IMG/VR virus record: IMGVR_UViG_2690316049_000008
Location: 1-19,931 of that record
DNA: 19,931 nt
Origin: a virus
Lineage: Duplodnaviria; Heunggongvirae; Uroviricota; Caudoviricetes
Strand: one strand, 5' to 3'
Positions 1,289 to 19,213 of the stretch are shown here, one piece after another. How positions within the stretch are numbered: the first letter of the stretch is position 1; every line of letters starts with the position of its first letter. Position numbers and translations under genes: made by a program. The notes below the pieces were generated by a model. It did no database searches. It saw only the letters and a program-made list of their open reading frames with translations, and had not been told where the DNA came from.

Positions 1289-1349
1289 TAACTGAATTTT
1301 ATGCACAACCATGTTGCGAATTTACCACATCATTACAAGGCAAACGGAA

Positions 1350-1667: not shown

Positions 1668-1673
1668 GAATTT

Positions 1674-1700
1674 CCGCACGCTTATCGCGTGCGGTTTTTT
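1674..1700 (+). terminator. Rho-independent terminator (perfect 8-bp GC-rich stem, 5-nt loop, T6 tract)
   Basis: CCGCACGC (1674-1681), loop TTATC, GCGTGCGG (1687-1694), then TTTTTT (1695-1700), 7 nt after the stop of the small plus-strand ORF. On the minus strand the same hairpin lies just past the stop of the convergent membrane-protein gene but has no U-tract, so it is mainly a plus-strand terminator. Confidence 0.75.
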
Positions 1701-3060
1701 ATTTTTTAGGCAATATATAGTATATTGCCTTATATGAAAAATATACAAATGATACAGTTATTATATTTTTTAAGAAAATAAATAAAAAGAATTCAAGGCT
1801 CTCCCTTGCCATAAAAAATGAAAAAGGCATTGTCATAAGTGCAGCTATTTGTATTACGCCAACTCTCCTCATCAATATGATTTTATCAAGAAATCTAAAA
1901 ACAACGCCTGAGATAACATATGAGCACCAGAAAAAATACTTTCCGAAAATAACAAGCGATGACCCAAGCAAAGTTGATGCCATATTCAATCCATTGCTAA
2001 GACCAAGAGCACTCACGGTAAAGTAATATGAGCTATTCATTGTGACAATTGGTTTGTCAGGCCATATGAATCTTGGGATAAACCCTGAAAATTGAGTAAA
2101 GAAATAATAGATACCACCAACATTGCGATCATTGCTAAAGTATTTAACAGCTATACTCTGATAATTGATAGGAGATACGCTATCAGCTAAATATCTTACT
2201 ATAATGCCAAACAGAGAGCCAGACTCTGAAATATCAACATCTGAGTATCTCACTATAGCCATTATACCAATTAGAATTAAGCACGCAGAGCCTATGCATA
2301 TTAACTTCAATATGCCAATTAGGCCTCTAGAGTGACAAATAAGAGCAACAATAAACATTGCGGAAAACATTACATTTCTTGAGCCACCAATAAGCACATA
2401 ATATGCCATCCCAAATAACAATGACATTATAATTGATTTAACGAACACATACTTATCGTCAGATGTAATTGCATACACTATAACAGCAGAAACAAAAGAT
2501 GACATTATCATTATAATAACACCACTACCAGCATTTCCGCCAAGCTTTAAAGCATAATCATCAGAATTAAAAGATATGCCGTTTATGGCATAAAAAGCCA
2601 TCATCCCAACAAAACTTAAAAACAACGTTGTTCTTACAAATAATTTTGGGCTACCAATAAAATATTTATCAGAAAATGTTATTTTATTTCTTCCTGCCGC
2701 TGTATGAGAGAATACATAAAACAAAACTATACCAATAAACGACAACGTAGACACATCATTTATATATTGATACGGCATATATTCTGCAGAACTAACTTTT
2801 GCCCCAACTCTAAACGGAAGCGATATATACCCAAAAAAATGAGTAAAAACAAGGAATAACATCCCAACAGATTTGAATGACACGCCATGTTTTTTGAATG
2901 ACACGGCACTTAAATATATTAATGTTATGGCATACAACGCAGGTAGCACATAAGTAAAAAATGATTCATAAATATTCATAATATTGTATGTAAAAATGAC
3001 TATTTTTACCCGATCTTTAAAGAAAGTACAGGATGATAGCGCGTTTCTACGCGCCATCAT
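1699..3060 (-). CDS. Polytopic inner-membrane protein (~11-12 predicted TM helices); probable Wzy/WaaL-like O-antigen polymerase or ligase-type surface-polysaccharide protein
   Basis: ORF with stop at 1699-1701. Hydrophobic throughout, with many 18-24-residue hydrophobic segments and one longer, less hydrophobic stretch (roughly residues 275-350) that could be a large periplasmic loop, as in Wzy/WaaL proteins. Extremely AT-rich and Ile/Phe/Tyr/Asn-rich, unlike the neighbouring phage genes. Start is ambiguous: GTG 3066 (overlaps the tailspike stop as GTGA), ATG 3060 or ATG 3057. An AAGGTGA Shine-Dalgarno that contains the tailspike TGA stop sits 2 and 5 nt upstream of the two ATGs, implying translational coupling. 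The functional call is inference from topology, composition and position, not from a recognised motif. Confidence 0.8.
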   Translation of the reverse strand: MMARRNALSSCTFFKDRVKIVIFTYNIMNIYESFFTYVLPALYAITLIYLSAVSFKKHGVSFKSVGMLFLVFTHFFGYISLPFRVGAKVSSAEYMPYQYINDVSTLSFIGIVLFYVFSHTAAGRNKITFSDKYFIGSPKLFVRTTLFLSFVGMMAFYAINGISFNSDDYALKLGGNAGSGVIIMIMSSFVSAVIVYAITSDDKYVFVKSIIMSLLFGMAYYVLIGGSRNVMFSAMFIVALICHSRGLIGILKLICIGSACLILIGIMAIVRYSDVDISESGSLFGIIVRYLADSVSPINYQSIAVKYFSNDRNVGGIYYFFTQFSGFIPRFIWPDKPIVTMNSSYYFTVSALGLSNGLNMASTLLGSSLVIFGKYFFWCSYVISGVVFRFLDKIILMRRVGVIQIAALMTMPFSFFMARESLEFFLFIFLKNIITVSFVYFSYKAIYYILPKK

Positions 3061-3062
3061 AG

Positions 3063-5243
3063 TCACCTTACAACAAATTTGCCATTGCTAATGTCGTTAA
3101 CTAGTGTTGCCACTATGTTAGCAATATCCTTAGTAGATAGGGTGTTTACGTCTCCACCGCGTAACGCACCGGAATTGGTAAATGGATACTGCTGAGGTTG
3201 TGAGCTATTGGCAAACTGGTTGTTAGCCTCATAACGTTTTGTTGGTACAGGGTTGTACCCAATACTACCTGTGGTTGTGTCAGGGGCCACACAGTTCGTA
3301 ATGTTCACTATAGCGTCAGAACCACTACCATTTGTATATATTGGCCTGTTAACTGTCCCGAATGGTTGCACAGCTACCAGCCTGTTAACAATAACACTCT
3401 GTGTGGCTAGTGCTTGTAAATAAGATTCTGCGCTTCCATTGCACCCCCTCAAGTTCACATTATCAACCTCTATGTGGCGGCAGTTAATGATGACGATATA
3501 ATGCCCATTTTCTGTGTTAGGGTAAGCGCCTACTATGCGAACATTTTTTAATGTTAAATCTGTGGTTGGCACCGCAGCAGGCCCACCGTTGAAAACAAAC
3601 CCTTTTGCACCATTTACAAGTGCGTGTATCGTAATGCCGTCAAACTCGATGTCGGCAAGATTAGTCGTGGTATTGGCTGAGTTTCTCAAAAAATAAACAG
3701 CTTCAGCAGAGCAACCTGATATCAAGAAGTTAGAAAAACGCATCCTTGTGTTTTCTACCGGATAGAAGCGGCATAACAAACCCTGCGAGCAGTTACGAAT
3801 AACAACGTTATCGTAGGATACGTCACTAGCTCCTTCAATTGCGACACCTGCGTTCGAACTTTCTACATATAGTCCAGTAACTACTCCATTACGGAAATTC
3901 CCTCGAAGACCGTGGCTTTCACAGTTTTTGATTGTAACGGCGTTTATGTTAACTCTTGTGATAGCTGTGCCATCACCATAACCGTTCATAAGGTCGTCTG
4001 ACTGAATACGCAAACCGTTACCACCAGAGGTATTAATGCTCACATCGTGAATCATAAGATTAAGCGTACGGTTTGGGCGACGTGATGAGAAGAACAAAGA
4101 TGAGGCCCAAGTGTTTCTGCAACGGATATGATGGACGTGCGCCTCTGTGGGGTCATTAACAATGATCGCCATGCCAGTTCGGTTGCTGCCATCTGGATCT
4201 TGAATTTTCCCACGACCACAATCATGTGAGTACAGATTATCGGCAAGAACCCATCTCCCATAATCCATCGTTACGTTGCTATTCCATGCCCCCTGCAATT
4301 CACACCCTGAAAGCTCAAGTGTACCTGCAGATTGCATGGCCAAACCAACCCCTGGGTCAAATGAAGCATTCTGCCGATAAAAATCAAACAAGAAATTACC
4401 GACAATGCGTATATCATATGGAGTATAGTCAAACTCTTGATTTGATTCGTTCCATGTCCGTGGGGATCTGAGCCATAATTGTCTGGAATCTACCGTCACT
4501 TTTGGCAATAACGGCTTTATGAGGATGTCTCCCTGAATATTAAATATACCTTCTACAGTTACGGGAGAGTAAGCGATCCCGATATTTCCAGATAGTGGAA
4601 GTAGTCTACTAAGTTGAGCGTCATTTTGTGCAATTTTCCAACCAGAATTAACCTCGTTAAAAAATGATATTGGGTAAAGTTCAATATTATCATTAATTAC
4701 AGTTGAGTCATAACTGGTAATTGTCAATGGTGATGATAATGGTGTGCTCATCATCATAAGGGCGCCATCAAGCCTAACGAATCTTACACCTTCGGGAATT
4801 AAGTCTCCTATTTTTGCATCAATTCCAATTTTATTAGGATAAACCTCACCACCTAAAAATCCATTCATTCCTCGAAGCCAAGATAGATTTAACATGACTG
4901 ATAACTGATCTGGATCGTACTTCAGCACATTAGGGAAATAGAACTGCTGTGATCCATATGCATCGTACACAGCCATAGAATGCCATTGTACAGTAACGAA
5001 CTTAGCAATCTGTCCGTTATATACAGGGTAGCCAGCAGCGTTAATAATTATTGGTTGCGAAACGGGAATGTGAGAGCCGTCTTCGTTCTCCACATAAACC
5101 TGAATTTGGTTTTCAGGATTTACCGGGTCCGTGTCAATTTTACCGATATAAATTTTGCCATTGGCTACGGCTTTAAAAGAACGAGCCATAGTGAAGAGTT
5201 GCGAAGGCATGCTTACCACAACATTGGCTGTAATGTCTGTCAT
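3063..5243 (-). CDS. Tailspike protein with P22/Sf6-type N-terminal head-binding domain and a divergent C-terminal receptor-binding domain
   Basis: 726-aa ORF. The first ~115 residues ([46 protein letters not shown]...NVLKYDPDQ) match, from memory, the conserved head-binding domain of P22 gp9 and Sf6/HK620 tailspikes. The remainder is Asn/Gly/Ser/Thr-rich with repetitive short beta-strand-like segments, consistent with a parallel beta-helix glycanase domain. GC drops after about nt 4900. SD GGAG lies 9 nt upstream of the ATG. Confidence 0.93.
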
Positions 5244-5262
5244 TTAATTTGCTCCGGACGTA

Positions 5263-5298
5263 GCAATTCCGGACAAGATGCAACCTGTCCGGCATTGC
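5263..5298. promoter_or_regulatory. 13-bp imperfect inverted repeat (RNA hairpin or possible operator) in the 5' leader of the tailspike gene
   Basis: GCAATTCCGGACA (5263-5275), 10-nt spacer, TGTCCGGCATTGC (5286-5298), with one mismatch. A further direct copy of TCCGGAC is at 5253-5259. It lies 20-55 nt upstream of the tailspike ATG, between the last ejection gene and the tailspike. Confidence 0.3.
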
Positions 5299-5338
5299 AC
5301 TAATGTCAGTTATGATTTGTTAATTATGAGGTGAGTCT

Positions 5339-5416
5339 ATGCAAAGAGATCTGTTGAACATTGCGTTCTACATAGTTGGTTTTTGCACGTTCCTGGTGTT
5401 TGCGAAGCTATTCTGA
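5339..5416 (+). CDS. Hypothetical 25-aa hydrophobic peptide (MQRDLLNIAFYIVGFCTFLVFAKLF), antisense to the late operon
   Basis: ATG at 5339 preceded by GAGGTGA (5328-5334) at 4-nt spacing; stop TGA at 5414-5416. Overlaps the 3' end of the gp16-like gene by 9 nt on the opposite strand. The peptide is one predicted TM helix. Too short for the ORF track, no homology evidence, could be chance. Confidence 0.2.
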   Translation: MQRDLLNIAFYIVGFCTFLVFAKLF

Positions 5417-7405
5417 CAACGCATCAGACTTGGCCCCCTGAGTCAGGGCGTTAATGGCCTTTTGCGCCTGCTGCATGGCTTTCTCAAACGCTGTTGATCC
5501 GCGTGGTGTACTTGCCATTCTGAGCATTGCATTTCTGAATGGCTCGCTCTCATAGGCGCGAGTAAGAAGTCCGTAGCTTACTGCTGCGCCAGTTGTTGCA
5601 GGGTTCATTGCCGTCCCATACCCGATAATGAACGGGATGGTTTGCTGCCCTGTTGGTGTTGTTACTGCCGCTTTTGCAGCCTGCTGCGTGGATTGCAGGT
5701 AGTTTTTCAATCCTTTCAGATAAGCAGCGTCCTGCCCCTTAAATGTGATGCCAGTCTGGTTTTGCAGGATGTTAAGCTGCCGAAGGAACTGGTCAGGGGA
5801 TCCTCCAGATTTCTCCATCGCCTTTCCAATAATGCCATTGCGCATTTGCGCCCTGCCAACACGACCAACTGAGTTATACAGAGTCTTAATTTCCGATTTG
5901 TTCTTGCTGAATAGCATGTTGTTGACAACTTCCGGCGTCAGATCGCCTTTCATGAGAACATTCTTCAGCCTGGTATTCTTTAGTTTAGCCGCTTCGTCAG
6001 CGTAGACGGCATTGGCCTGCTGATATTTACGGAGAGTATCGTTGCCAAGATTCTGTCCAATGGCACCATTGATATCGTCGGTCATTGCCTTGTAAACGCG
6101 CTGAATGGCAGCATCGGAACGGTTTGGTAACACTGGTCGCTCACCCTTCACGTCCATTCTGAACTGGCTGCGCAGATCGCTTAATTGCTTCAAATCCAGA
6201 TTTACCGGACCATCAGGACCAGCATTGCGAACAAGCTCATCACGATAGGACTGAAGTTTTGAAATAGTCTCGTTATCAGCTACCTTACCAAGCTTCTGCA
6301 GATTAGATATTTCTGTATCAATCTGCTGAATTGCTCGTGCAGGCTGAATGTTTACTCCTGCCATAGCATTCTGAACCCGCTCCAGTCGATTACCTGCGGC
6401 ACGACGAATTCCTGATGTTTTCGCTTTAAGGCTGTCAATAACAACAGCTGGATCATACTCACCGAATTTATCAGCAAATCTCTGCACCAACTGGCTTCTC
6501 GCTTCCTGTTGCGTTGCTCTCATTCCGCTTGTGCCAGCCAGAGGGATATTTTCTGCTGTAGTCTGCGCCATTTTTCCGACGCGGGAAGTTGGGTGTAACA
6601 GGTCTGTGGTGTGCAGAGGAACACCTTCACGCTCTGCAAATCTGATAGCCTGCTGCGCTTCTGGCGCAATAGCACCACGAACGCCACGATAAGCAGCACC
6701 TAATCCACGTCCGGCAGCGTTAATAGCACCGCCAGCAAGTACACCAACGCCTAAATCGGTGGCGAGTGCTTCCGCATCATCTTTCGCACTATTTGCAGCA
6801 AGTGATCCAACTGCGTTTTCTGCGAGAAGGCGAGTTGCACCCTGAGCAATTCGACCAGCAAGTGTTGGTGCCTGTGTTGCAGCTCTCTCAACTCCAGCAG
6901 GAGTGAGGTAAGGCAATGCTTCAGCAAATACCCTTCCCTCTGTCGTTTGTGGAGTCAGCACGCCTTGCTGAAGGCCAAAGTCCTGCTCTAATCCCTGCGT
7001 TGTTACTCGTGGCGCTGGTTGATATGTCCCATCGCCAATGCCAAGTTTACCGCCAGCCCAAGCCGCCGCGCTTGTTACAGCATCGGCAACTGATGCAGGT
7101 ATGTTTGCCACGTTCACGCCAGCCTGTACCAGTCCGCGACCAGTCTCTTTTACTGCTTCGCCAAGATCAGACATAAATCCACTTTGCTGTGGTTGTTGCT
7201 GTGCTACTGGCTGTTGTGTCTCCACTGGCTGCACAGATGGCAATGGATAGGCAGCATAGAAAGCTTGCTTAGCCTGCTCTGCATTTTCTCCGGCTTGCGG
7301 GGCCACGACTTCATTGAAGTATTGCTCCTGAGCCTGCGCTTTTTGTTCTGGTGCTAACGCCTGATACTGTGGAGAGGCGATAACATCTTTCCATGCTTTA
7401 GCCAT
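5408..7405 (-). CDS. Ejection (injection) protein, P22 gp16-like
   Basis: 665-aa ORF, third of three consecutive ejection-protein genes in the P22 order gp7-gp20-gp16, directly upstream of the tailspike. Ala/Gln/Gly-rich low-complexity composition typical of these proteins. ATG at 7405 overlaps the upstream stop as TAATG; SD GGGGTGA. Confidence 0.8.
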   Translation of the reverse strand: MAKAWKDVIASPQYQALAPEQKAQAQEQYFNEVVAPQAGENAEQAKQAFYAAYPLPSVQPVETQQPVAQQQPQQSGFMSDLGEAVKETGRGLVQAGVNVANIPASVADAVTSAAAWAGGKLGIGDGTYQPAPRVTTQGLEQDFGLQQGVLTPQTTEGRVFAEALPYLTPAGVERAATQAPTLAGRIAQGATRLLAENAVGSLAANSAKDDAEALATDLGVGVLAGGAINAAGRGLGAAYRGVRGAIAPEAQQAIRFAEREGVPLHTTDLLHPTSRVGKMAQTTAENIPLAGTSGMRATQQEARSQLVQRFADKFGEYDPAVVIDSLKAKTSGIRRAAGNRLERVQNAMAGVNIQPARAIQQIDTEISNLQKLGKVADNETISKLQSYRDELVRNAGPDGPVNLDLKQLSDLRSQFRMDVKGERPVLPNRSDAAIQRVYKAMTDDINGAIGQNLGNDTLRKYQQANAVYADEAAKLKNTRLKNVLMKGDLTPEVVNNMLFSKNKSEIKTLYNSVGRVGRAQMRNGIIGKAMEKSGGSPDQFLRQLNILQNQTGITFKGQDAAYLKGLKNYLQSTQQAAKAAVTTPTGQQTIPFIIGYGTAMNPATTGAAVSYGLLTRAYESEPFRNAMLRMASTPRGSTAFEKAMQQAQKAINALTQGAKSDALSE

Positions 7406-8799
7406 TAATCACCCCATAGTGAAGAAAAGTTACTGCTGGCTGCTGGTTGTGATACCTGTGCAGGTTGAGATTGCTGCCGCTGAGATTTACCAACATTAAC
7501 GTTATATTGTTGGTTGTAATTGTTGGTGTATTCCTGAATCTCACGAATCGACTGCTGCATAGCCTCCGGGCTTGAATAGTCAACCTGCGGCATCCCCTGA
7601 AAATACATCTTCGCTTCTGCAACGGTGTTAATACCACTGGCCCCCATGTCCCTTGCTGCCGCCACACCCTGATTCTGCATTCTGCCCTGAATACGTTGTG
7701 CTGAGTTATATAACTGGCGCTGCTCTTTTCCTGTTAATCGGCTGCGAACATCAGCACCAATTGCCGGGTTACCTGCGCCGCCGGTCATTCCTGTCATGAA
7801 ATCGAGAGCAGAAGCGTCTGCATTTGCGATCGCGTCGATATCCTTCTTCATGGCATAGTTTTGTGCTGATGCAGACGATGTTGCAGGCGCTGCGATTGAA
7901 CTGGCAGGAACGCGAACCATATTCCCCTCGTTGTCGATGCCTTCGTAGAACGCATTTGCCCCAGCGCCGTGAAGTTTCCCGCCAACCGTTACAGTTCTGC
8001 CATCTGATAACTGAACTGTACGCTCATCATTCCCAGCGGTTCCTCTTGTTGACGCTCGCTGCATTGCCAAATCCTGCCCGCGTCGCGCAGTAGAAGCAGA
8101 TAAATCCTGACCGCGCATCGTGATGTTCTGACCTCGTGCTGTTAGCGCCTCTCCAGCCTGATTGCTGCGGATTGTCTCTGCAAGTTTTCCGCGATCAATC
8201 TCACGCCCAACGATTCTGTCTTGCGCCTGAAAATATTGTTCTGGACCAAGTGCAGCCATTCCAAGGTGATCAACAAACTCTGTGAAACCTTGTGGATTTT
8301 GCTGATACATTTTCGCCACATCCAGAGGGTCTACTCCGGCACGAGTAAGCTCAGATGAGTTGTTCTGCAACCATGACATCATGGCTTCTGGAGATGAAGC
8401 TGCCAGTCTGGCACTTGCTGCCAGTGTGCCGACAGTGGAACGCTGGTCTTCATCGACAAATTTCATGCCGTTTCTTACAGCGTCAAACTGCTCAGGATAC
8501 TGTGATGCCAGTTTTCGCATTGCATCGCGGTCACCAGATGTATATGCATCAGCATAAGCCTGCTGAAACTCTTGCTGTCGCTTCTGCTGATCCATCTGCT
8601 TATACATATCCATGACAGATGAAATGCCCTGCAAAGCCTGCAAGCCAACGTTATTACGTCCTGAACGCTCCATCTCGTTATTCTGTCGAATGTATGCAAG
8701 CGTGGCGTCTGCATCACTTGCTCTTGGAGCGTTGGAGTTCATGCCGCCTAACCCGGCAAGAAGCGCGCCTGAATTACCAGCCTGTTGCCATGTAGCCAA
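7405..8799 (-). CDS. Ejection (injection) protein, P22 gp20-like
   Basis: 464-aa ORF in the position and size class of P22 gp20. The first codon at 8799 is TTG, preceded by a strong SD GGAGGTG at ~5-nt spacing immediately after the upstream stop, so a TTG start is likely. Confidence 0.8.
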
Positions 8800-8811
8800 G
8801 AGACACCTCCA

Positions 8812-9471
8812 TTAAAACAGTGAACCAAGAAGGCCGACGCCAGCACCAATTGCTGTACCCCAACCAGGCATGATTGCAGTACCCATCGCAGCACCTGCCG
8901 CAGCTCCACCGAGAGCACTCTGAAAACCAGACGGTTTATTGGCATTTGCTGCCGCTGCCGCCGCCTGCTGTTGATACAATTGGCTGACGTTGTTAGCGTA
9001 GTTCTGCCCGGCGTTTGCCTGACCTGTAAGAGCACCAAGGCCAATGTTTGCCAGATTGTTGTAGTTGTTCATCTGACCTGACAGCCAGTTTTGACCGAGT
9101 GTAGGTGCGATTGCTGCTAACTGGTTTCCTGTTGCTGTAGAGCCTAATCCACCCGTTGCCTCTGCTGCAGCAAGACTCTGATAGCGCGCCTGCCCTGCAA
9201 GGTCTTTATACTGCTGGGAGTTGTAATACTGGTTAAGCGCCTGACCTTGCCCCTGAAGAGAGGAAAGATTCTGCAACTGTGATACGTACTGCTGAGCGAG
9301 TGGCGTGAACGGTGCAAGGTTCTGCATGTTTGTCTGCCACATTTCACGCTGCAATTCGATACCCTTTTCAGTTGCGCGTGCCTGGGCTTTAGAGCCGGAG
9401 TCGCTGCCGCCTTTCATGTACCCATTCATGGGAAGCAATTTATTCTTGAAGCTTTCGCTAAGTACCAACAT
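8812..9471 (-). CDS. Ejection (injection) protein, P22 gp7-like
   Basis: 219-aa ORF with a Gly/Ala/Gln-rich C-terminus ending in a hydrophobic Gly-rich tail, and a KGGSDSGSKAQARATE motif resembling P22 gp7. ATG at 9471 is preceded by GAGGAG at 7-nt spacing. Overlaps the gp14-like gene by 14 nt. Confidence 0.8.
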   Translation of the reverse strand: MLVLSESFKNKLLPMNGYMKGGSDSGSKAQARATEKGIELQREMWQTNMQNLAPFTPLAQQYVSQLQNLSSLQGQGQALNQYYNSQQYKDLAGQARYQSLAAAEATGGLGSTATGNQLAAIAPTLGQNWLSGQMNNYNNLANIGLGALTGQANAGQNYANNVSQLYQQQAAAAAANANKPSGFQSALGGAAAGAAMGTAIMPGWGTAIGAGVGLLGSLF

Positions 9472-9925
9472 TTAATAGCTCCTCATATTTCGAACGAGGT
9501 AATTGATAGAGGGTGATTCCTACCGGTTTTCCGTTACTCATGTACGCATCATCAAGGTGACCAACACGGGTAGCGCCAAGCAAACGGATAATTGCCCGTC
9601 CATATTTTGTGGTGTCAGGAACCATAGTGATGCTGTTAAGGAATGGTGAGTTTTCGAGAAGCCACTTGCAGAATAATCGATGCCCTTGCAGTGCATATTC
9701 ACCACGGAATCCGGGGTCGTACACCGCATGGCATTCAACAACGCTATGCCAGAAGTTACGCACTTCATGAACGCCAGCCAGCACTAATCCTTCGTAGATG
9801 CCGAGATATACCGCATCAGGCTTGATGTAGTATTTATCTCCACTGTCTACGATATTTCCCGTGTTTGCCGGGTTGTTGAGGAATTCTGCAAGCTTCACCG
9901 GATTATCGATGAGCTTTATTTCCAT
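9458..9925 (-). CDS. P22 gp14-like protein (role annotated only by position in the late operon)
   Basis: ORF in the gp14 position between tail needle and ejection genes. The track starts at GTG 9928, but ATG 9925 has the better SD spacing (GGAG 5 nt upstream) and overlaps the tail-needle TGA stop as TGATG. Confidence 0.75.
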   Translation of the reverse strand: MEIKLIDNPVKLAEFLNNPANTGNIVDSGDKYYIKPDAVYLGIYEGLVLAGVHEVRNFWHSVVECHAVYDPGFRGEYALQGHRLFCKWLLENSPFLNSITMVPDTTKYGRAIIRLLGATRVGHLDDAYMSNGKPVGITLYQLPRSKYEELLNVGT

Positions 9926-10878
9926 CACTGCTCCGCAATGATTTTGATGGTTGTGGCAGTAAACGCCGCACCATTAGACTGAATGGTTAACGTACTGCCA
10001 TTTGTGGCAAGAAAGCCGTCTTTATCCACGCTGAAGAACGTAGCTAACAGGATGTTGTCGGTTGTTGTCGCCGAGTTGCGACTGCTTACCAGTGTGTCAG
10101 GAACAGAACCGGAAAAAGTTAGCTGCATTGACCTGTTGGCGGTTCCGCTGGGCCACGTCCCAACAATCGACAGCTTGAAGAACAAGGTTTTGTTCTCGTT
10201 GAACACAACCATCTTGTTGTTAACGGTGTCGAAGAATGGTGCCAACTCACCGGATGACGGCGTGAGCGTTTTCAGCAGGCTAACAAGGTTGGTAGGCGAT
10301 GTCGGAATTGTTACCGATACCCCTGAGTAAACAACCTCTGATTTCTTGCGCGTGGTGGCATACTCAAGCGCAGATATTCTTGTTGAGTGATCACCAACTG
10401 TGCTTTGTAGCGTCGAAATACTTCCCTCTGCCGCTGTGAGCCTGGTATCAAGTGCGTCGATATCGGTTGTATTCTGAGTTATGCGCGCATCATGGTTTGC
10501 TAACTCAGATTCATTGGCAGCAATTCGCGTCTCGTGATCAGCCAGCTCTGTTTCAGCAGCCGTAATCCTTGTTTCATGATCTGCAAGAGTGCTTTCCGCT
10601 GCTGCAATTCTATGTTCATGATTGATGAGAGTTGCTTCAGCAGCTTCAATTCTGGATTCATGGTCTGCAAGGGTGACATCCTGCTCATCGTTCCTGACCT
10701 GTGCATCATAAGCGCCCTGTCCGGCCTCGTTGGCTTTGTTAGCCACGTTACCAACATCAGTGCCCTGTGCGATAACGTAAAGCAGATACGACTGCGAGAA
10801 GATATTGCGTGGAAGGACTGATGTGTCGAGCCGTGTAGCCTGAATGATTACCGGCACATTGAGATTCGAATCAGCCAT
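9925..10878 (-). CDS. Tail needle protein (P22 gp26-like) with trimeric coiled-coil repeats and a C-terminal knob domain
   Basis: 317-aa ORF. The N-terminal ~65 residues ([43 protein letters not shown]...) match the conserved gp26 N-terminal hub-binding region. The centre holds 14-residue (double-heptad) repeats of the [11 protein letters not shown] type. The C-terminal ~140 residues are a Ser/Thr-rich globular extension absent from P22 gp26, consistent with an Sf6-type knob. ATG overlaps the gp10-like stop as TAATG. Confidence 0.88.
10459..10677 (-). repeat. Imperfect tandem 42-bp (14-codon) repeats, about 5 copies, inside the tail-needle gene
   Basis: Protein-level repeats [14 protein letters not shown] / [14 protein letters not shown] / [14 protein letters not shown] / [14 protein letters not shown] / [14 protein letters not shown] are mirrored by ~42-nt DNA repeats; 10546-10587 was checked to encode [14 protein letters not shown]. 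Short ORFs on both strands in the ORF track here are frame shadows of this repeat. Confidence 0.7.
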
Positions 10879-12296
10879 TACTCAATCCTTATCTGGCAGC
10901 CTGACAGAGTGACAGGTGACTTCGTGATAACGCGCAATTTGAAACCGACATTTTTCCTGATGCGCCCTACTCGCTTCCACAAAACGCGTTTGTCGTAAAC
11001 GAACGGTTCATTCTGCTCAATCATCTGCTCACGCCCGTAATTGATGCCGTCAGTGGTTGCAGAGAGAAAAAGGCGGTCAGCATACTGCGCAACTCCAGTT
11101 GAAGATTCAACTTCAAGGTCGAAAACTCTGGCGTTATCTGCTTTGAACAACGGAGTAAACAGCAGGTGTTCCTGCTGCTTGTCGTACTGACTGCTGATAT
11201 CGAACTGCAATTTCCCGGTCACCGATTCCAGCTTATCGCCGCACGTTATCTGATTTCCTTCGTAAATGAAGTCGATAGCGCGGTACACATCGTCATACAA
11301 GCCTGTTTTCAACACACACCATTGCGGACCATTGGCGCTTGAAGATGCGTCGTACACGAGGACGTGGCGCGGAAGGTGGATAATCAGCAACTCATGAGCA
11401 TCAAATCGTAGAGACTCCATCACGCCATCAGCCAGTTCATCAGCAGTGTAGGAGCGGAGGATTTTCTCAATGCTCGCGCTGGCGATTGGTGATACCTGAC
11501 CGGAGCCGATGATGTAAACAGACGGCGCACCTGTTGCCGGATTGCTGATGAACGCATACGAATCAGCAAACGGCGTTTTGCAGTAGGTTCCGGCGATTCC
11601 TTTTTGCACCATCAACGATGGCTGGGCGACATACAAAGCGGCACCAACAGTGGTTGCACCAGTCAGGGAAAAATATTCAATCGTCGATGAACCAAAGCAG
11701 ACGATGAAGTCTCGCCATGTTCCGATGCCGATGATGCCGTCAGGCTGCGATTCTGCGCGATATTGTGCGCTGTATCGGTCAGGATGTGATTCGTCTTCAA
11801 GGTCAGTGATAAACCATGAATCAGTGCCGTCTTTTGACCACGCATAACGCCCACGTAAGCGCGTAATGTCGCGTACTGAGCCTAACTCATACTGCGTGAA
11901 TCCGCTGTCTGTAGGCCAGTTTGAGACGGTTTTAACCGTGCCATCATAGCGATACTCGACCAGTTTCCCGTTAACGCCTACCGCCTGTGATGTCCGACCA
12001 TGCGCCATTGATACACGACCACTTCCGGCGACGTCACCGACTTCACTTTCGCCTTTGTACAGCTTGCCACCACACACGCGATAAACAGCATTCTGCGCCA
12101 TGTTGTACTCGACGCCACGCGATACGCCGTTCACATCAGAACGTTTGGCAATGCCCGGGAATGAGCGAAGATATCCGCTGCTGTTAAGGATTTCTTTTGG
12201 TGTAGCCAACATATTCACTGGCAGATAGTCGATATAGTCGGCGTTTCGGAAGTCTTTGCCGACACCTTTCATAAGCGGAAGTTGCTGAATCGGCAT
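10878..12296 (-). CDS. Tail hub / head-completion protein, P22 gp10-like
   Basis: 472-aa ORF, matching the length I recall for P22 gp10 and sitting in its position downstream of the gp4-like gene. ATG at 12296 with SD AGGTGA 5 nt upstream. Confidence 0.85.
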
Positions 12297-12355
12297 TTAT
12301 TCACCTATGCGTTTGGGATATCGCCATCAATCAGAGGGAGATCGCCTGGATAATA

Positions 12356-12787
12356 TCAGTCAGATGTAAACACGTCATATTTATTACCCTGTCCTACAGG
12401 AAAATCTCCACGTCGTCGCATTGAAGGAACAACCAGAGTGTCGGTCATCAAGGCATCATATGAGCGTTGGGCGTTACTGAGAACTTGCGGAGTTGGTTCA
12501 AGGCTGTAATCAGATAGCATTCTCAGCAATAACTGATAGCCTACTGCGTGTTTGTATTTTCTTGGAAGACCTGACTCATCATCTGGTAATGGCTGATCAT
12601 CTCCAGTTGCGAAAGCGTAACCAATGTCGCCGGGGTTAATCATCCACTCGGACATCATATCTTCCAGATCATTTACACCATCTTCAATTGATTGCGGCTC
12701 AACATCAGTCAGCGATGCATTAGAAGCAATAGCAAACTTACGAAGCGCAAAAAGGACGATCTCACCCTTTGTCAGTACTGTTGCCAT
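12356..12787 (-). CDS. Head-to-tail adaptor protein, P22 gp4-like
   Basis: 143-aa ORF whose N-terminus (MATVLTKGEIVLFALRKFAIASNASLTDVEPQS) aligns with what I recall of P22 gp4. It is the first gene after the coat gene and small ORF, as expected. Confidence 0.82.
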   Translation of the reverse strand: MATVLTKGEIVLFALRKFAIASNASLTDVEPQSIEDGVNDLEDMMSEWMINPGDIGYAFATGDDQPLPDDESGLPRKYKHAVGYQLLLRMLSDYSLEPTPQVLSNAQRSYDALMTDTLVVPSMRRRGDFPVGQGNKYDVFTSD

Positions 12788-12947
12788 TGTCTGCCGCCTT
12801 ACGACCTCGCTTACTGGTCGGTTTCAATTCATCAACTGAGGCAACAAAGCCCAACCTTTCGAAAAACTGGAAGTCTTTTTCTGCGATAACGGCCTGTACA
12901 TGCCCGGATTCGTTATCTGCGGCAAGGAATACACTCATCCGATCCAT
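12762..12947 (-). CDS. Small hypothetical protein (61 aa) between coat and adaptor genes
   Basis: ATG at 12947 preceded by a good SD (AAGGAA, 5-nt spacing). Overlaps the start of the gp4-like gene by 26 nt in another frame. No recognisable motif. Confidence 0.45.
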   Translation of the reverse strand: MDRMSVFLAADNESGHVQAVIAEKDFQFFERLGFVASVDELKPTSKRGRKAADNGNSTDKG

Positions 12948-12958
12948 ATTGTTTCCTT

Positions 12959-12986
12959 AAAACATAAAAGGGGCGTAAGCCCCTTG
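12959..12986 (-). terminator. Intrinsic terminator-like hairpin immediately after the coat gene (probably partial or leaky)
   Basis: On the minus strand, right after the coat TAA stop: AAGGGGC, loop TTAC, GCCCCTT, then TTATGTTTT (7-bp stem; stem and loop at 12968-12985). It is followed by the SD of the next small ORF, so some readthrough into downstream late genes is expected. Confidence 0.6.
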
Positions 12987-12989
12987 TTA

Positions 12990-14261
12990 TTACGGATTAC
13001 CGAAGAACTGACCGCCCATGTGAGGGTTAAAGCACACATATGCAGGCAGTAAGTCGAAGCGCATTTTTTGCACGTTGGCATCGCCATCTGCGTATTTATG
13101 TACGCGGATGGAGAAACCTTCATATGTTGCAACAGCAGAATCAATACTGTGCAGTTTCGGCAGTGGGATAGAGCCAAGTCCACAGAAGAACTTGTTATAG
13201 AACAGGTTTGGCTTCATTGTCTGGCTAGCAGTGCCTACTACAGATACGGCATCGCCTGCCTCTACCTGACGACTTACAGAGTTGTACTGCGGGTTTGTAG
13301 TGTCATAAATCGGAACACCAGAAAGCGTAACCGTCACATCGCCACCGCTGTCTGAATTAGCATCAGCAGTAACCGTTGCAGTGAAGCTAATTGGTGTGGT
13401 TCCGTTATACAACGCCTGTTTGGTCTGCTGTTGCAGCCAGTAGGTATTGGTGAATTTGACCTGATCACCAGCTTTCAGAAAACCTGTAACGCTGGCTGTC
13501 GCTCCGGTCAATGTTACAGTGAACTGGTATGAGTCTTTAACTGCGTTATAGGTAACAGTTGGCTGTGTTTTGACTGTCAGTGTTCCGCCAAATGCCCCCT
13601 GCGTACGAGAGGCAAGCCCATTAGACATCAGTGCGCGAATGCCGCCAAAATTGGTTGGGATCTGTGCGTTCTCCCATGCAGTACGAACCAATTGATCTGA
13701 AGCATGCAAACCAGTCTGCGCATCAGCAAGTCGCTGTGCAGACCATGGATCCATTACAGCATAGTTTTCACCTTCATTAACGCCGAGGTCTTTCAGGAAA
13801 GATGCCGTCTGCGCAACATCAGACCATTTGGTGATTGGAGTATTGGGGCTACCAAGTGACAACGCACCGTTATTCATCATGAAGTGAGCAAGCTCTGTTT
13901 CAAGGTCGGTAACGATTCGCTGGCGAACCGGCGCGAGAATTCCTTCCAGCTGGTTAAGCTTGATCGCTTCCTCCAGTTGCTGATATTCAACAGCAACAGT
14001 GATGTAGTTACCTACACGCCCCGTAGCTTTACCTGAGATCAGGTTGTTTTTATTTTTCCCTGAAATATCACCAGTGGGAGTACGGAGGGATGAGAATTGA
14101 TGCGGACGTTTAAAGCTAACGCTATCGCCAGTGCTGGAGTTGATTTCACCTGCCAGCAACTGACGGTCTACGGTTTTCGCCAGAACTAAATCTGACATAA
14201 AACCCGGAAGGAATTTTTTCAGAACGATTTGACTGACGTTACTGTCGAGATTGTTAGGCAT
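12990..14261 (-). CDS. Major capsid (coat) protein, P22 gp5-like
   Basis: 423-aa ORF directly after the scaffold gene and before a terminator hairpin, the classic P22-like order portal-scaffold-coat. Strong SD (AAGGAA, 7-nt spacing). Confidence 0.88.
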   Translation of the reverse strand: MPNNLDSNVSQIVLKKFLPGFMSDLVLAKTVDRQLLAGEINSSTGDSVSFKRPHQFSSLRTPTGDISGKNKNNLISGKATGRVGNYITVAVEYQQLEEAIKLNQLEGILAPVRQRIVTDLETELAHFMMNNGALSLGSPNTPITKWSDVAQTASFLKDLGVNEGENYAVMDPWSAQRLADAQTGLHASDQLVRTAWENAQIPTNFGGIRALMSNGLASRTQGAFGGTLTVKTQPTVTYNAVKDSYQFTVTLTGATASVTGFLKAGDQVKFTNTYWLQQQTKQALYNGTTPISFTATVTADANSDSGGDVTVTLSGVPIYDTTNPQYNSVSRQVEAGDAVSVVGTASQTMKPNLFYNKFFCGLGSIPLPKLHSIDSAVATYEGFSIRVHKYADGDANVQKMRFDLLPAYVCFNPHMGGQFFGNP

Positions 14262-14272
14262 TTATCTTTTCC

Positions 14273-15157
14273 TTATTCGATTTTTGCGCCGGGGCATAAT
14301 TTGTTGAATTCGTCTTGTTTCGCATCAGCACCGCCACCACGTACTTCCGGCTCTGGCTTGATGGCTTTCTTTGGTTTTGGAGCAAGGCTTACCTGTTTGC
14401 TAATCTGCCCCAAGAGGAATGCTGCGCGAATTGGATCTGTCTCAGCGGCTACACGCTGGCGTAATTGCTGGCTCTTGCCTAAGCCATAGGCGAGTAGTTC
14501 AGAGCCTTCGTCTGCACAGTGAATGATGATTTCCTGCTGAATTGGTGGTAGCTCACTAAGAACAATGGCTTCCATTTCCTGATAATCTTTCACAGGAAGT
14601 TTGGCTGCCCGTTGTTTATGCGCTTCTACCCTTTGCTGGAAACGCTGCTGGTATTCCTGTTGCTGACGTAGTTTTTGTTGCTGCTGCTGTTCGACACGGC
14701 CTTTTTTCTCATGCCAATCAGTCAATGCCTGTTCAAACGCCTGTTCGTCATAATCACACGACTCAAGAGTCGGTTTTGGTGGAATAGCGTCTGGTTGTGG
14801 TTGCTGATGTTCCGCTGGCTTGGCTAATGCTTCCTCAAGCTGGCGGCGCAACTCACGGTTTTCTTTCTGTGTTTCTTTGAAGCCTTTGCGAAGATCTTTC
14901 ACCCATTGCGGCGCAGGTTGCCCGTCAATGTGATCATCATCGTCAGCGTTAAGCTGAATTTCTTCATCACCAATACGCAAGGCGTAATCTTCTGGTGTCT
15001 CTTCGGTTTTTTCAGGCTCAGTTGCCACCTCTTTACCGTTGTCATCCTGGCTTTCATTCTCAGGCTGTGACTCTGTTTGGATGATGGTTTCTTCTGCATT
15101 TTCCTGTGTTTCAGACAGGTCAATAACCTGACCGTCGATGATCAGTTCGTTTTCCAT
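14273..15157 (-). CDS. Scaffolding protein, P22 gp8-like
   Basis: 294-aa ORF between portal and coat. Highly acidic N-terminal half, Gln/Arg-rich predicted helical middle (QQQQQKLRQQQEYQQRFQQRVEAHKQR) and a basic C-terminus, as in phage scaffolds. SD AGGAG 6 nt upstream of the ATG. Confidence 0.82.
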   Translation of the reverse strand: MENELIIDGQVIDLSETQENAEETIIQTESQPENESQDDNGKEVATEPEKTEETPEDYALRIGDEEIQLNADDDDHIDGQPAPQWVKDLRKGFKETQKENRELRRQLEEALAKPAEHQQPQPDAIPPKPTLESCDYDEQAFEQALTDWHEKKGRVEQQQQQKLRQQQEYQQRFQQRVEAHKQRAAKLPVKDYQEMEAIVLSELPPIQQEIIIHCADEGSELLAYGLGKSQQLRQRVAAETDPIRAAFLLGQISKQVSLAPKPKKAIKPEPEVRGGGADAKQDEFNKLCPGAKIE

Positions 15158-15170
15158 TGATTACTCCTGG

Positions 15171-17297
15171 TTAACTCGGCATTAAGTCTGCCGGTGACTG
15201 TGGTGGTGACTGGAATTGCTGTTGTTGTGACTCGGCGACATCTTTCAGAAGGCGTATTGCCTCCATCACTGCTTTGTCATCGATGTTTCTGGCTTGAGCC
15301 AGTTTATAGACAGTGTTTGCCTGACTCTCCATCGCATCCTGCTGGGCAGTAAATGCTTTGATTTGAGTTTGAGCAGTTTCGTTAGTTGCTTTTTGCGCTT
15401 CTGCCTGCGCTGCTACCATTTGCGCCTGAGCGAGAACCATTTCAGGATTTGGCTGGCTTTGTGCTGCCATTTGCGCCTGTTGAACAATCTGCTGCTCTTT
15501 CTCATTGCGTGGTTTTGCAATGCCAGATATCAGCAGTTGGTTTCGGTTGTACTCTTTGAAGTCATCAAGGCCTTCGCCATCAATATTGTCCAGAATAATA
15601 CCCTGAATTGCCGGGCGCATTGGGTCTGTTGGAAGCATAGAGCTAAGGACATTTGTCAGTACAGAAACCGTTGCATCACGTCGTGCTGTGTAGCTTGGTC
15701 CAACATCAACCGTCACATCGTATCGACCGACAGAAAGGTCATTTAAAGCAACAACAGCCCCTGTTTGCCTGTCAACAACCTGTGCGCTCAGGACAGCGAT
15801 ATCATCACTTCCATCTTCGTTAACGATGCGCACTTCACGCTCTGAACCGTACACTTCACGCGCCATTGACAGCCATACTTCACCAGCGCGTTTAAGACTT
15901 TTCGCCATATTGTCCAGATAGATAAACGAAGCCATATCTGCTCTGTTCATCAAGTTGTTAACCGTTTCCTGAGCAATATTACTTGGCATCTGCTGCATGG
16001 CCTGACTGCCGCCTGTAACCTCCTGAATATCTGCACTGGTTTGCTGTAGTAATGCAGCCAATGCCTGATTCATAACCGCAGGCTGTGTATATCCTGCCGG
16101 GGTAGCTCCAGCGATAATGTTGCCAGATTTATCTCTCACTTCGCGCAACGGCAAGAACGCTGGTCGTTTCTTGTTGCGAGCCTCCCAGTGCTTCTCAAGT
16201 CCACGAATTTGCTCCATGCCAACTATAGGGATCTGACCGGGGTCTTGCGCTGCAGTATCAGCCAGCATTGATACCTGAAGGTTATACAAACGCTGTGGAT
16301 CCATTGCTTTTGCAATGTGCCCTTCGACACGCTCAATGTCATCAATGAACCAGCGTTTTCCATAAACCGGGATGAGGGGGATATGCTCACCAGGAATACG
16401 TCGAGGTTTCTCAAGGAAACCATCACCATCCACTACGGATACATACACACGACGGCGCTTCACTGAGCGCCTTGCCACTTCATGAAATCCAGCTATTGCC
16501 AGTTCATCTTCAATATCTTCAACCTGATCACTGTCGTATGTTGCAATCTCTCCAGTGATTGGATGTCGATAACTGATGACGTCAACAGACTCTTTACGAA
16601 CTTCGTAATACTTCGCTATGTAAATAACATCTGCACCAAACCAGTTATATTCCCAACTGGTCATAGACGTTACATCCAGAGAAGTAGGAGGTTTCTTCCC
16701 GTATTCAGCCTCATATTTTTCAGGTGACAACGAATACATACAGAACGCCCACAACGCGTCAGATTTGTCGTACTTCTTAGCGTCAGGGTCAAACCACACA
16801 GAGCGCGACGGGTCGTATATTGGTTCAATAGCAATACGCTGACGATCGTCCATGGGGTCGTATTCATTGACCAGCATCGACGTCAAACGGAAGCAACCGA
16901 AACCACCAGTAGCAGCGTCGTCAAATGCATTATCGCAAGCCTCACCGCCATCAGTTTCTTCGTAGTCAGCACGGAACAGACCATTTAATTTATTGGCTAA
17001 CTCTTCGCTTGCCTCTCTGTCACCAGGACGAAACTTAACGGTTATTCTGTTATTGCGGTATTCTGCAATGATGCGGTTAAGTTCAGTTGCTACCTTATTG
17101 ATTTCAAACTTAGGATACTTCTCGAACTGCTCATCAAGCTTAGTTCCAGCCGCCGTTGCTCCTTCCCATTGACCTCCGGGGACACGAGCAAACCTCGTAG
17201 CTTCAATGCACTTTTCGCGCACTTCCTTCTGTGGAGAATAGGCGCGGTCAAACCTGAGCATGATCCGCTCATGTTTTTTCTCTAATGTCTCTGCCAT
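15171..17297 (-). CDS. Portal protein, P22 gp1-like
   Basis: 709 aa from ATG 17297 (MAETLEKK...), placed 2 nt after the terL stop. The track ORF extends 24 codons further upstream, but that extension overlaps terL and is unlikely to be translated. Size, position and a C-terminal Gln/Ala-rich predicted helical tail match P22-like portals. Confidence 0.9.
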   Translation of the reverse strand: MAETLEKKHERIMLRFDRAYSPQKEVREKCIEATRFARVPGGQWEGATAAGTKLDEQFEKYPKFEINKVATELNRIIAEYRNNRITVKFRPGDREASEELANKLNGLFRADYEETDGGEACDNAFDDAATGGFGCFRLTSMLVNEYDPMDDRQRIAIEPIYDPSRSVWFDPDAKKYDKSDALWAFCMYSLSPEKYEAEYGKKPPTSLDVTSMTSWEYNWFGADVIYIAKYYEVRKESVDVISYRHPITGEIATYDSDQVEDIEDELAIAGFHEVARRSVKRRRVYVSVVDGDGFLEKPRRIPGEHIPLIPVYGKRWFIDDIERVEGHIAKAMDPQRLYNLQVSMLADTAAQDPGQIPIVGMEQIRGLEKHWEARNKKRPAFLPLREVRDKSGNIIAGATPAGYTQPAVMNQALAALLQQTSADIQEVTGGSQAMQQMPSNIAQETVNNLMNRADMASFIYLDNMAKSLKRAGEVWLSMAREVYGSEREVRIVNEDGSDDIAVLSAQVVDRQTGAVVALNDLSVGRYDVTVDVGPSYTARRDATVSVLTNVLSSMLPTDPMRPAIQGIILDNIDGEGLDDFKEYNRNQLLISGIAKPRNEKEQQIVQQAQMAAQSQPNPEMVLAQAQMVAAQAEAQKATNETAQTQIKAFTAQQDAMESQANTVYKLAQARNIDDKAVMEAIRLLKDVAESQQQQFQSPPQSPADLMPS

Positions 17298-17299
17298 GT

Positions 17300-18712
17300 T
17301 TACCAACCGGAGGATGAGGGAACGTATATTTCTGTTTCTTCGCGGACCAATGCCGGGCAATGCATACACATCATCAGCGCATCAGCCAGGTTAGGAGATG
17401 AAATACCGAGCTTCTGCTTCATTTCGACCTTAGTCATAAGCTCCAGCTTCCCGTTATTATTGAATTTGCGCTGAATCTGCGTCAGTTCTGCAAACAGCTT
17501 CTCCAGCATCTTCTCGCCTATCACTTCTTTGTCGAAACTCAGCATGTCGTCGGGGTCTGCATACTCACCGTGGACAACCGCCCGATATGTCAGATACAGC
17601 CTGTCAGCCAGCGCGTAATAGAATTGCGCTCGCTTATTGCGGAATACATCGCCAATAGTGCGAACGTTGTCGCCCTGTACGACTTCATCAGCCCATGCTC
17701 CGGCCTGATACGGAGCATCTTCATCGAATGGCGATTCGCTGCCCTTGAACATCGTGGCGGTGATTTTCTTGCCGGAGAACGCTTCCGTTGTCTGTCTGCG
17801 TAGCCCGGCACCAACACCATCACCATCCCACAGGTAATGGTCAGCGCCGTCTTCAATCGCCAGCGAAGTAGCCCAGTCAGCACCCTCGTTGATGTCCATC
17901 AGCAGACCTTCGGCAATGCGCTTAACTACCGAACCGTGACGCGATGCATAACCTTTAGCATCTGGCCCTGTATCTGATGGGTCATGCGCAGAGACAACAG
18001 CGCCTTTCGCTTTCCATCCGAGTTTCTTGTGCGCATCGGTTGCGGCTTCAAGCCATTCACGTTTGATGATTGCCATATCACTTGCGCTTACTGGCTCACC
18101 AAGCCAGATGTGACGATACAGTGTCGGGTTTCTGCGTTTGCACTCTTCCATCTCCAGACGGAGAACTTCAGGAAAATGCGGGTTGTCGGTGTAGTTCACC
18201 GTCAGCAGGCAAATATCATCGGGAGGATTTACAACGAATCGCTGATAGGTATCGTCGAGTATGTTCTTCGGGTTAAAGCTCACCCATATTTCGGAAAACG
18301 GCTTGCGGATGGTTGGAATCAGGATATCCCACGATTCCTTTGTTACCGCTTCCGCTTCTTCCACCCAGCAAATATCAATGCCTTCTAGCGATTTAATCTT
18401 CGTCGGGTTGTTTTTGATGCCGTAGAACATGAATTCAGCATTCGTTCCGAGATGACGAATCATTGAACGCTGAATTTCAAACTCAGACGAATACCCTTCC
18501 CGCTCTATGGTGTCTTCAAGCAACCGGATTACCGAATCGCTGATACTGTTTTGCAGTTCACGAGCGCAGAGAATACGCACTGGCTGACGACGCGCCGCTT
18601 CAACAAGCAGCCTAGCAATTGCCCATGACTTACCGCTACCTCGACCGCCTTTGGCGACTTTGTAGCGATGCGCCTCAATGAACGGTTCAAAGATAGGATT
18701 AATCGAGGTCAT
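17300..18712 (-). CDS. terL: Terminase large subunit
   Basis: 470-aa ORF with an N-terminal Walker A P-loop (KGGRGSGKS) and Walker B-like hydrophobic-DE (ICWVEEAEA), followed by a C-terminal acidic nuclease-type region. ATG overlaps the terS stop as ATGA. Closely resembles the Sf6-type large terminase as I recall it. Confidence 0.93.
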   Translation of the reverse strand: MTSINPIFEPFIEAHRYKVAKGGRGSGKSWAIARLLVEAARRQPVRILCARELQNSISDSVIRLLEDTIEREGYSSEFEIQRSMIRHLGTNAEFMFYGIKNNPTKIKSLEGIDICWVEEAEAVTKESWDILIPTIRKPFSEIWVSFNPKNILDDTYQRFVVNPPDDICLLTVNYTDNPHFPEVLRLEMEECKRRNPTLYRHIWLGEPVSASDMAIIKREWLEAATDAHKKLGWKAKGAVVSAHDPSDTGPDAKGYASRHGSVVKRIAEGLLMDINEGADWATSLAIEDGADHYLWDGDGVGAGLRRQTTEAFSGKKITATMFKGSESPFDEDAPYQAGAWADEVVQGDNVRTIGDVFRNKRAQFYYALADRLYLTYRAVVHGEYADPDDMLSFDKEVIGEKMLEKLFAELTQIQRKFNNNGKLELMTKVEMKQKLGISSPNLADALMMCMHCPALVREETEIYVPSSSGW

Positions 18713-19134: not shown

Positions 19135-19213
19135 ATTGATTATTTCCCTTCTGCTTGCTTATCCCATTCATCGCGGAATTTGGATGGGTTGTCGAAACCT
19201 TGAGTTGCCATGT

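Follow-up and report, generated by a model that had tools for sequence, protein, structure and literature searches.

A tail needle shaft encoded by recognizably repeated DNA raises the question of whether that DNA is a recent tandem array, through which the length of the needle could readily change, or an old repeat of the protein that is visible at the DNA level. The locus lies in a 19,931-nt stretch of a caudoviricete genome (IMG/VR record IMGVR_UViG_2690316049_000008, positions 1 to 19,931; this whole stretch is referred to as the window). A first-pass annotation had described five near-identical tandem 42-bp repeats at 10459-10677 in the coiled coil of a tail needle, had taken them as a sign of recent duplication and had proposed that slipped-strand events or recombination could expand or contract them and in that way change needle length.

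The gene is a tail needle gene with the repeats in its coiled coil, as the annotation had it; Pfam and PDB matches agree on this. The full model of PF16532 ('Sf6-type phage tail needle knob') is covered at 5.1e-107, PHROG 1030 'tail needle knob' matches at 7e-136 and PHROG 1219 'tail needle protein' matches residues 1-111 at 3.5e-59. The gene and its immediate neighbors are the following:

9925..10878, minus: tail needle gene of the HS1/Sf6-knob type, P22 gp26 family; 954-nt open reading frame, 317 aa plus stop
10878..12296, minus: upstream neighbor, gp10-like tail hub/packaged-DNA stabilization protein of 472 aa (PF11134, 1.8e-301)
9458..9928, minus: downstream neighbor, gp14-like DUF2824 protein (PF11039, 2.6e-65; PHROG 651)

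These genes belong to a P22-like operon for morphogenesis that is encoded wholly on the minus strand and runs terminase small and large subunits, portal, scaffold, coat, gp4, gp10, needle, gp14, gp7, gp20, gp16 and tailspike, with a Wzy-like gene and an integrase after the tailspike; the needle gene thus has the placement of the gp26 family, between gp10 and the gp14, gp7, gp20 and gp16 (ejection protein) genes. A prophage of E. coli N1454 carries the needle gene at 100% identity, as does an IMG/VR locus (L001), and the needle genes of the isolated phages Gally, vB_EcoP-720R6 and JEP4 are 95-97% identical to it. Because all residues named for the needle of the HS1 prophage are present at the same positions, the gene is, judged by its sequence, an allele of the already characterized HS1-type (16-heptad) tail needle. 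In P22 and Sf6 the needle plugs the tail channel, retains the packaged DNA and is expelled at infection (PMC3741392; PMC9728967), and the window needle would likewise serve its P22-like (Lederbergvirus) prophage as a plug of the tail channel that projects past the tailspikes.

The protein can be divided into an N-terminal virion-binding part, a long shaft and a C-terminal knob:

10675..10878, minus: aa 1-68, N-terminal virion-binding domain and start of the helix, homolog of P22 gp26 by phmmer
10678..10692, minus: NxxQD polar core motif N63-D-E-Q66-D67, with N at heptad position a, Q at d and D at e by heptad register
10633..10674, minus: unit A, aa 69-82, with the R-h-x-x-h-E motif RIEAAE (R at g)
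10591..10632, minus: unit B, aa 83-96, by sequence and register
10549..10590, minus: unit C, aa 97-110, 79% identical to unit A in DNA, the closest pair
10507..10548, minus: unit D, aa 111-124
10465..10506, minus: unit E, aa 125-138
10381..10464, minus: degenerate units F and G, aa 139-166, in the same heptad register as A-E
10363..10380, minus: RISALE, aa 167-172, the last R-h-x-x-h-E motif and, by register, the end of the coiled coil
9928..10362, minus: Sf6-type TNF-like knob, aa 173-317, 98-99% identical to 4K6B and 3RWN

In a phmmer search of the PDB, residues 1-138 align from residue 1 onwards with the P22 gp26 chains 3C9I, 2POH and 4ZKP (E about 1e-41 to 1e-42; 1e-41 to 1e-47 for gp26 chains in general), and the N-terminal virion-binding domain of about 60 residues is homologous to that of gp26. 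NxxQD is a Ca2+ site in the coiled-coil core of P22 gp26 (PMC13580157), and the N63-x-x-Q66-D67 motif of the window needle may bind an ion as well. From V35 to L171 the heptad pattern, with all a and d positions listed explicitly and L70 at a, runs without a break: the a positions are V35, V42, A49, A56, N63, L70, I77 and so on to I168, and the d positions are Q38 and so on through H73, A80, H87, A94, H101, A108, H115, N122 and H129 to L171. Each 14-residue unit in this way supplies the core with four layers, Leu(a)-His(d)-Ile(a)-Ala(d). Position e of the shaft is nearly always Glu and alternate g positions are Arg, so that most units contain R-h-x-x-h-E, of which there are five, a recognized trimerization motif (PMC6173795). 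Fourier analysis of hydrophobicity over the shaft was uninformative because half of the core positions are His or Ala. In the AlphaFold2 monomer a single unbroken helix spans residues 41-174 (pLDDT 92-98) and is followed by a beta-rich knob. From the register and the homologous structures we infer that the shaft is a parallel trimeric coiled coil with His core layers; 104 residues lie between NDEQDV and YATTRKK, and the heptads of this core are continuous, as in the 16-heptad HS1 type.

The annotation was also right about a C-terminal knob without counterpart in P22 gp26. Beyond the match to PF16532 (5e-107) and the beta-rich prediction, the PDB search matched residues 165-317 at 98-99% identity to the knobs of HS1 (4K6B) and Sf6 (3RWN). 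The HS1 knob is TNF-like and binds three L-glutamates via E181, K235, S283 and D285, and its crystal construct, residues 167-317, includes the RISALE part of the shaft (PMC3741392). In the window needle these four residues and the S266-R267-N268 tip triad are present at the published positions, which makes L-glutamate binding a putative property of its knob.

With regard to the repeats, five consecutive 14-residue units are present at aa 69-138 (10465-10674, minus strand), within the interval of the annotation, and the periodicity that it reported at the DNA level is real. Self-identity at lag 42 is 0.607 vs 0.26 in mononucleotide shuffles (z = 10.5) and 0.31 in codon-order shuffles (z = 8.6), none of 5000 shuffles reached the observed value, and lags 42, 84 and 126 rank as the top three; TRF reports a period of 42 with 3.0 copies and 68% matches at 10552-10675. 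What did not hold is that the units are near-identical, as the tandem units of a hypermutable repeat would be: DNA identity between units is 36-79%, with 57-64% for adjacent units and 79% for the best pair, A and C, and nowhere in the shaft is an exact in-register repeat longer than 9 nt. Owing to this divergence, a repeat search with 7-nt seeds over the array yielded no more than fragmentary families of two copies.

The DNA repeat is no more than a shadow of the peptide repeat. When synonymous codons were resampled with the protein held fixed, the mean lag-42 identity was 0.598 (z = 0.39) and 1953 of 5000 resamplings reached the observed value. Units A-C share 18 of 29 synonymous codons vs 10.7 expected (p about 0.005, uncorrected and with non-independent pairs), and the remaining unit pairs (D-G) share 17 of 78, below the 27.4 expected. 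This excess suggests that the A-C part of the array may be younger or may have been homogenized by gene conversion.

Comparison of alleles likewise speaks against recent duplication. The 79 IMG/VR genes extracted from the best 80 relatives (95-100% identity) represent 66 distinct DNA alleles, all of 317 codons and ungapped; the scans returned as their best 80 loci only loci of the query's own length, and for this reason they are unfit for estimating allele frequencies. Among these 79 genes nucleotide diversity is lower in the repeat region (0.027) than in the knob (0.045) and the N-terminal part (0.059). Needle length does not vary in the roughly 163 complete E. coli genomes with a match over at least 80% of the gene, and homologs in Klebsiella aerogenes and Serratia marcescens (76-77% identity) keep the 104-residue core and the unit count. 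Because the unit count is kept across the 66 alleles and in these homologs, the array is old rather than recently duplicated, and the five units together with the two degenerate ones are probably the products of ancient duplications that have fully diverged at synonymous sites.

The reading that the units are near-identical through recent duplication and that the locus changes fast, readily altering needle length, draws on the strong 42-bp periodicity, on the mild excess of shared codons in units A-C and on the existence of relatives with other unit numbers, some with perfect 84-bp duplications. Against it stand (i) the low identity between units and the 9-nt longest exact repeat, (ii) the finding that their similarity does not exceed the level imposed by the protein, (iii) the constancy of length in the 66 alleles from the best 80 IMG/VR loci, in the E. 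coli genomes and in other genera and (iv) the rarity of variant junctions. Junction-specific megablast searches of 5,426 complete E. coli genomes gave no matches to the A/B and A/C fusion junctions, and the three variant junctions searched were found in 0, 1 and 0 of these genomes; because the same alleles are found on many draft contigs, we read these nulls as rarity and not as absence. The frequent copy-number differences among close relatives that characterize a contingency locus were thus not found (79/79 genes at 317 aa among the best 80; 0, 1 and 0 of 5,426). For this window the reading is already largely refuted, and we regard it as very unlikely.

We favor the alternative that these are old shaft units of two heptads each and that relatives have gained or lost whole units only rarely. 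In the 120 best protein clusters, measured from NDEQDV to YATTRKK, copy number NEVERTHELESS varies across relatives, with cores of 41, 55, 69, 76, 83, 90, 97, 104, 118, 125 and 132 residues. All of these lengths are 6 mod 7; off-phase lengths occur in only 4 of 102 anchored clusters, which are singletons and mostly from short contigs. Copy number is thus not invariant among relatives (cores of 41-132 residues), and the idea of the first-pass annotation that expansion and contraction alter needle length survives in part: relatives differ through in-register events at short repeats, but a ready change in this allele is not indicated, the variants being rare. The variants, with the shared sequence at each junction, are:

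345 aa: 84-bp tandem duplication of A+B, the copies identical save the junction base; crossover in CTTGCAGA, common to A and C
331 aa: independent duplication of A+B on another haplotype (both copies with AEE), together with a D/E fusion
303 aa, first type: A/B fusion at AGAATTG
303 aa, second type: D/E fusion at CGCGAAT
289 aa, first type: A/C fusion at CATGAA
289 aa, second type: A/C fusion at GCTGCTGAA
268 aa: D/G fusion, 147 bp (seven heptads), at TGATCAC

In the 331-aa allele the junction base is ACC and not ACT, which a simple A/C crossover does not explain, so that a further event or another breakpoint has to be assumed for this allele. Needles of the Sf6 lineage carry 0, 1, 2 or 3 copies of an 84-bp block and are 254, 282, 310 and 338 aa long, respectively; within a genome the copies are 100% identical, the duplications lie on two different haplotypes and the shared homology is GACCATGAAAC (11 bp). 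Events were judged to be independent by comparing junction sequences and haplotypes. Within the window, the longest exact repeats in register are GCTGCTGAA (9 nt) and CTTGCAGA (8 nt), both at a lag of 84, and junctions of natural alleles lie at both of them; 10 of the 15 exact repeats of at least 7 nt in the window shaft are in heptad phase, which implies that mutation bias and selection both favor phase-preserving changes. A 324-aa protein (P0008) and entries of 285, 288, 298 and 394 aa were considered as shaft variants and rejected, their lengths reflecting N-terminal extensions of the gene call on normal cores.

We take the variants to be real alleles: they recur on as many as 24 or more contigs, where the neighboring gp10, gp14 and gp7 are intact, and one lies in a closed genome. 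That the variants might be assembly artefacts or alleles of decaying prophages, with functional needles of this type fixed in length, is an explanation to which several observations lend themselves: the 345-aa, the 338-aa and one of the 289-aa alleles each come from a single draft contig, in the sole closed genome with a 303-aa needle the tailspike is a truncated pseudogene, and the isolated phages found have needles of 317 or 282 aa only. It does not account for the 303-, 289-, 268- and 254-aa alleles, each of which is found on 7 to 24 or more independent contigs, or for the fact that the multi-contig alleles are all in frame, in heptad phase and beside full-length gp10, gp14 and gp7. Moreover, a typical read is longer than these repeats (42-84 bp), which makes expansion by misassembly unlikely, and a P22 needle in which a shaft segment was duplicated in the laboratory folds and has been crystallized (PDB 4LIN). 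In total, we consider an artefactual origin of the variants most unlikely.

Combining the allele series with the repeat structure, we suggest the following model for the preferred reading, which we hold to be probable as a whole: old double-heptad shaft units persist, and relatives rarely gain or lose whole units via in-register microhomologies. In this model, (i) the repeat motif would leave in-register microhomologies of 6-11 bp, mainly in the GAYCAYGAR codons for Asp-His-Glu, in the Arg-Ile codons that come next and in GCTGCTGAA, (ii) slippage during replication or unequal recombination there would on rare occasions delete or duplicate whole units, (iii) only products that keep both the reading frame and the heptad phase would persist, presumably through selection, (iv) the outcome would be a series of alleles with shafts of about 7 to 20 heptads and (v) a perfect 84-bp duplication, once present, could expand further, as the 1x, 2x and 3x states in the Sf6 lineage would illustrate. 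RecA-independent slippage, a phage recombinase or host recombination could each have produced the junctions, these processes looking alike by sequence. Coiled-coil geometry gives about 1.5 Å per residue; by this calculation each 14-residue unit would add about 21 Å (roughly 10 Å per heptad) and the natural series would span about 135 Å.

Of all parts of a P22-like virion the needle is thought to reach the outer membrane first, and it controls the release of DNA; for these reasons its length is a plausible functional variable. One proposal is that the shaft is an adaptive ruler, tuned by gain and loss of units to the tailspike or to the thickness of the O-antigen layer of the host. The needle projects past the tailspikes, and changes in its tip alter the kinetics of DNA delivery (PMC3741392); a heptad-quantized allele series exists. 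We addressed this proposal with 160 IMG/VR loci with 10-kb flanks (the best 80 per scan), which yielded 99 complete tailspikes, taken by their head-binding domain. Needle length was not associated with tailspike type or length in these 99 tailspikes: needles of 317 aa occur with 30 tailspike receptor-binding clusters (478-825 aa) and needles of 282 aa with 40 (446-981 aa), five clusters are shared between the two needle lengths, and tailspike lengths are alike (median 690 aa for 317-aa needles vs 679 aa for 282-aa needles; Mann-Whitney p = 0.80). In addition, two lengths dominate and intermediates are rare. We regard a ruler matched to the tailspike or the O-antigen as quite unlikely.

A related speculation, which we rate as unlikely, is that the polymorphism of 7-20 heptads is kept by selection because shaft length tunes virion stability or the trigger or rate of DNA delivery, and that in the common alleles the codon diversification of the older units (D-G) was itself selected against slippage. 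If this were true, the shaft would be a deliberately stabilized yet adjustable molecular ruler.

Because the repeats are old, diverged shaft blocks of a characterized needle and relatives rarely change unit number, the finding is largely ordinary, and the needle type, the knob and variation in heptad number (11-16) were already known and published in 2013 (PMC3741392). The additions made here are modest: the repeats of the common allele are old and stable; the natural range is 7-20 heptads vs the published 11-16, with lengths that would arise at short in-register microhomologies and an allele series resolved at the level of junctions; and needle length is not matched to tailspike type. The allele series opens no new question, and natural alleles with 12, 14, 16, 18 and 20 heptads in nearly the same background form a ready set for testing effects of length on stability and DNA delivery. 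Within the accessible literature, a search on duplication in tail needles of P22-like phages gave nothing relevant.

The window needle can be placed among several known systems, of which the needle of the HS1 prophage (EcHS_A0316; knob 4K6B) is the closest. That needle has 317 aa, is 98% identical to Sf6 in the N-terminal domain and 99% in the knob, and has a shaft of 16 heptads vs 11 in Sf6 and P22 that is only 67% identical to that of Sf6; the needles of P22-like phages in general have 11-16 heptads and are 220-320 Å long, knob swaps leave host specificity unchanged and changes in the tip slow K+ release (PMC3741392, Leavitt et al. 2013). The window needle shares with it the length of 317 aa and the numbering, with S169, E181, K235, S266-R267-N268, S283, D285 and A305 all present, the 16-heptad shaft, the position of the gene between gp10 and gp14 and a knob segment that is 98% identical; in the compared segment it differs by only a few substitutions (T166 for S, S192 for A, E210 for T), and the likeness of the shaft follows the published description.

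Sf6 gp9 (282 aa; 3RWN) has a nearly identical N-terminal domain and knob, the same gene order and a 14-residue unit of the same xLxDHExRIxxxExx design. Its shaft, however, is diverged in sequence and 35 residues (5 heptads) shorter, with 11 vs 16 heptads, its DNA matches the window gene only in two pieces with 79% coverage, and its own variable block is an 84-bp unit. P22 gp26 (233 aa; 2POH, 3C9I) resembles the window needle in the N-terminal 60-70 residues, NxxQD, the first LADHExRI unit and a trimeric coiled-coil shaft (predicted for the window needle), whereas it has fewer DHExRI units and a different, non-knob C-terminal tip, and homology stops at about residue 140-160.

The gp26 fibre in PDB 4LIN (a 300-residue chain), which we take to be a deliberately engineered elongated fibre in a P22 background, parallels the natural variants in that its shaft was lengthened by duplication of a coiled-coil block in register, and the duplicated segment (DDHESRITANT...NNISALQA) is visible in the alignment to the window needle. 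Because this in-register duplication crystallized, the fold tolerates such insertions. A 2009 paper by the same group reportedly links the stability of the needle to the length of its coiled coil. With respect to the origin of the junctions, RecA-independent slipped misalignment in E. coli makes deletions and duplications between short direct repeats. The junctions described here are similar in that they lie in exact direct repeats of 6-11 bp less than 200 bp apart and in that both deletion and tandem duplication are seen; they differ in that they are products read from sequence, for which phage or host homologous recombination between diverged units is a possible alternative source.

The tailspikes encoded downstream of the needle genes are extremely mosaic. 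When receptor-binding domains were clustered at a threshold of at least 50% identity, the 100 complete tailspikes, comprising 99 from IMG/VR contigs (loci L093-L252, downstream of the needle) and the window's own, fell into 66 clusters, and the window's own tailspike was the sole member of its cluster. The features of the window in this region are:

3063-5243, the window's own tailspike, 726 aa
1699-3066, minus strand, WzyE-like O-antigen polymerase homologue, 455 aa (PF06899, 8.8e-19)
1311-1667, plus strand, ORF of 118 aa, with the integrase on one side and the Wzy-like gene on the other

The start of the Wzy-like gene overlaps the tailspike stop codon, and comparison of the gene with PHROG gave no match. 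Its position between the tailspike and the integrase makes a role in prophage seroconversion probable. The 118-aa ORF had no match in Pfam or PHROG.

In the 2013 study, this knob was found only in P22-like phages of Escherichia and Shigella (PMC3741392). Our searches also identified them in prophages of Klebsiella aerogenes and Serratia marcescens (needle clusters P0063, P0067, P0070 and P0074) as well as in Salmonella phages S9-5 and ABTNLsp11242, Aeromonas phage 4_4512 and Shewanella phage ZP9 (matches H88-H91). In E. coli O157:H7, many chromosomes were matched only at the knob half of the needle gene and the neighboring DUF2824 gene (query 1-448, 95% identity; H50-H68), a pattern consistent with the small remnants of P22-like prophages that Leavitt et al. 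2013 mention (PMC3741392).

Among the needle alleles, four singletons are out of heptad phase owing to indels in the shaft:

P0004, 316 aa, indel of -1 residue
P0048, 298 aa, indel of -5 residues
P0054, 309 aa, indel of -1 residue
P0056, 285 aa, indel of -18 residues

Most of these alleles come from short contigs, and they may represent errors, dead genes or tolerated stutters. A 303-aa needle, of the type in which units D and E are fused, is present in a single closed E. coli genome, NZ_CP023142 (L092, 1626562-1644603). The head and tail module there is otherwise complete, but the annotation gives the tailspike as a truncated pseudogene.

Within the 14-residue repeat units of the shaft, the older units D-G (10381-10548, minus strand) have 17 of 78 synonymous codons in common, fewer than the 27.4 expected from codon usage, whereas units A-C share 18 of 29, more than the 10.7 expected. 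Avoidance of DNA identity that would promote recombination may explain this pattern, or it could result only from small numbers and non-independent pairs. Two further ORFs run across the repeat region:

10534-10821, plus strand, 95 aa, opposite to the needle gene
10500-10757, minus strand, 85 aa, in another frame than the needle gene

Both translations are of low complexity, and the periodicity of the coding sequence is the most likely reason why these ORFs exist.

In the motif NDEQD (aa 63-67 of the needle; 10678-10692, minus strand), N occupies heptad position a, Q position d and D position e, and the motif does not vary among the 25 aligned homologues. NDEQD is an instance of the NxxQD core motif, which has been shown to coordinate Ca2+ in P22 gp26 (PMC13580157).
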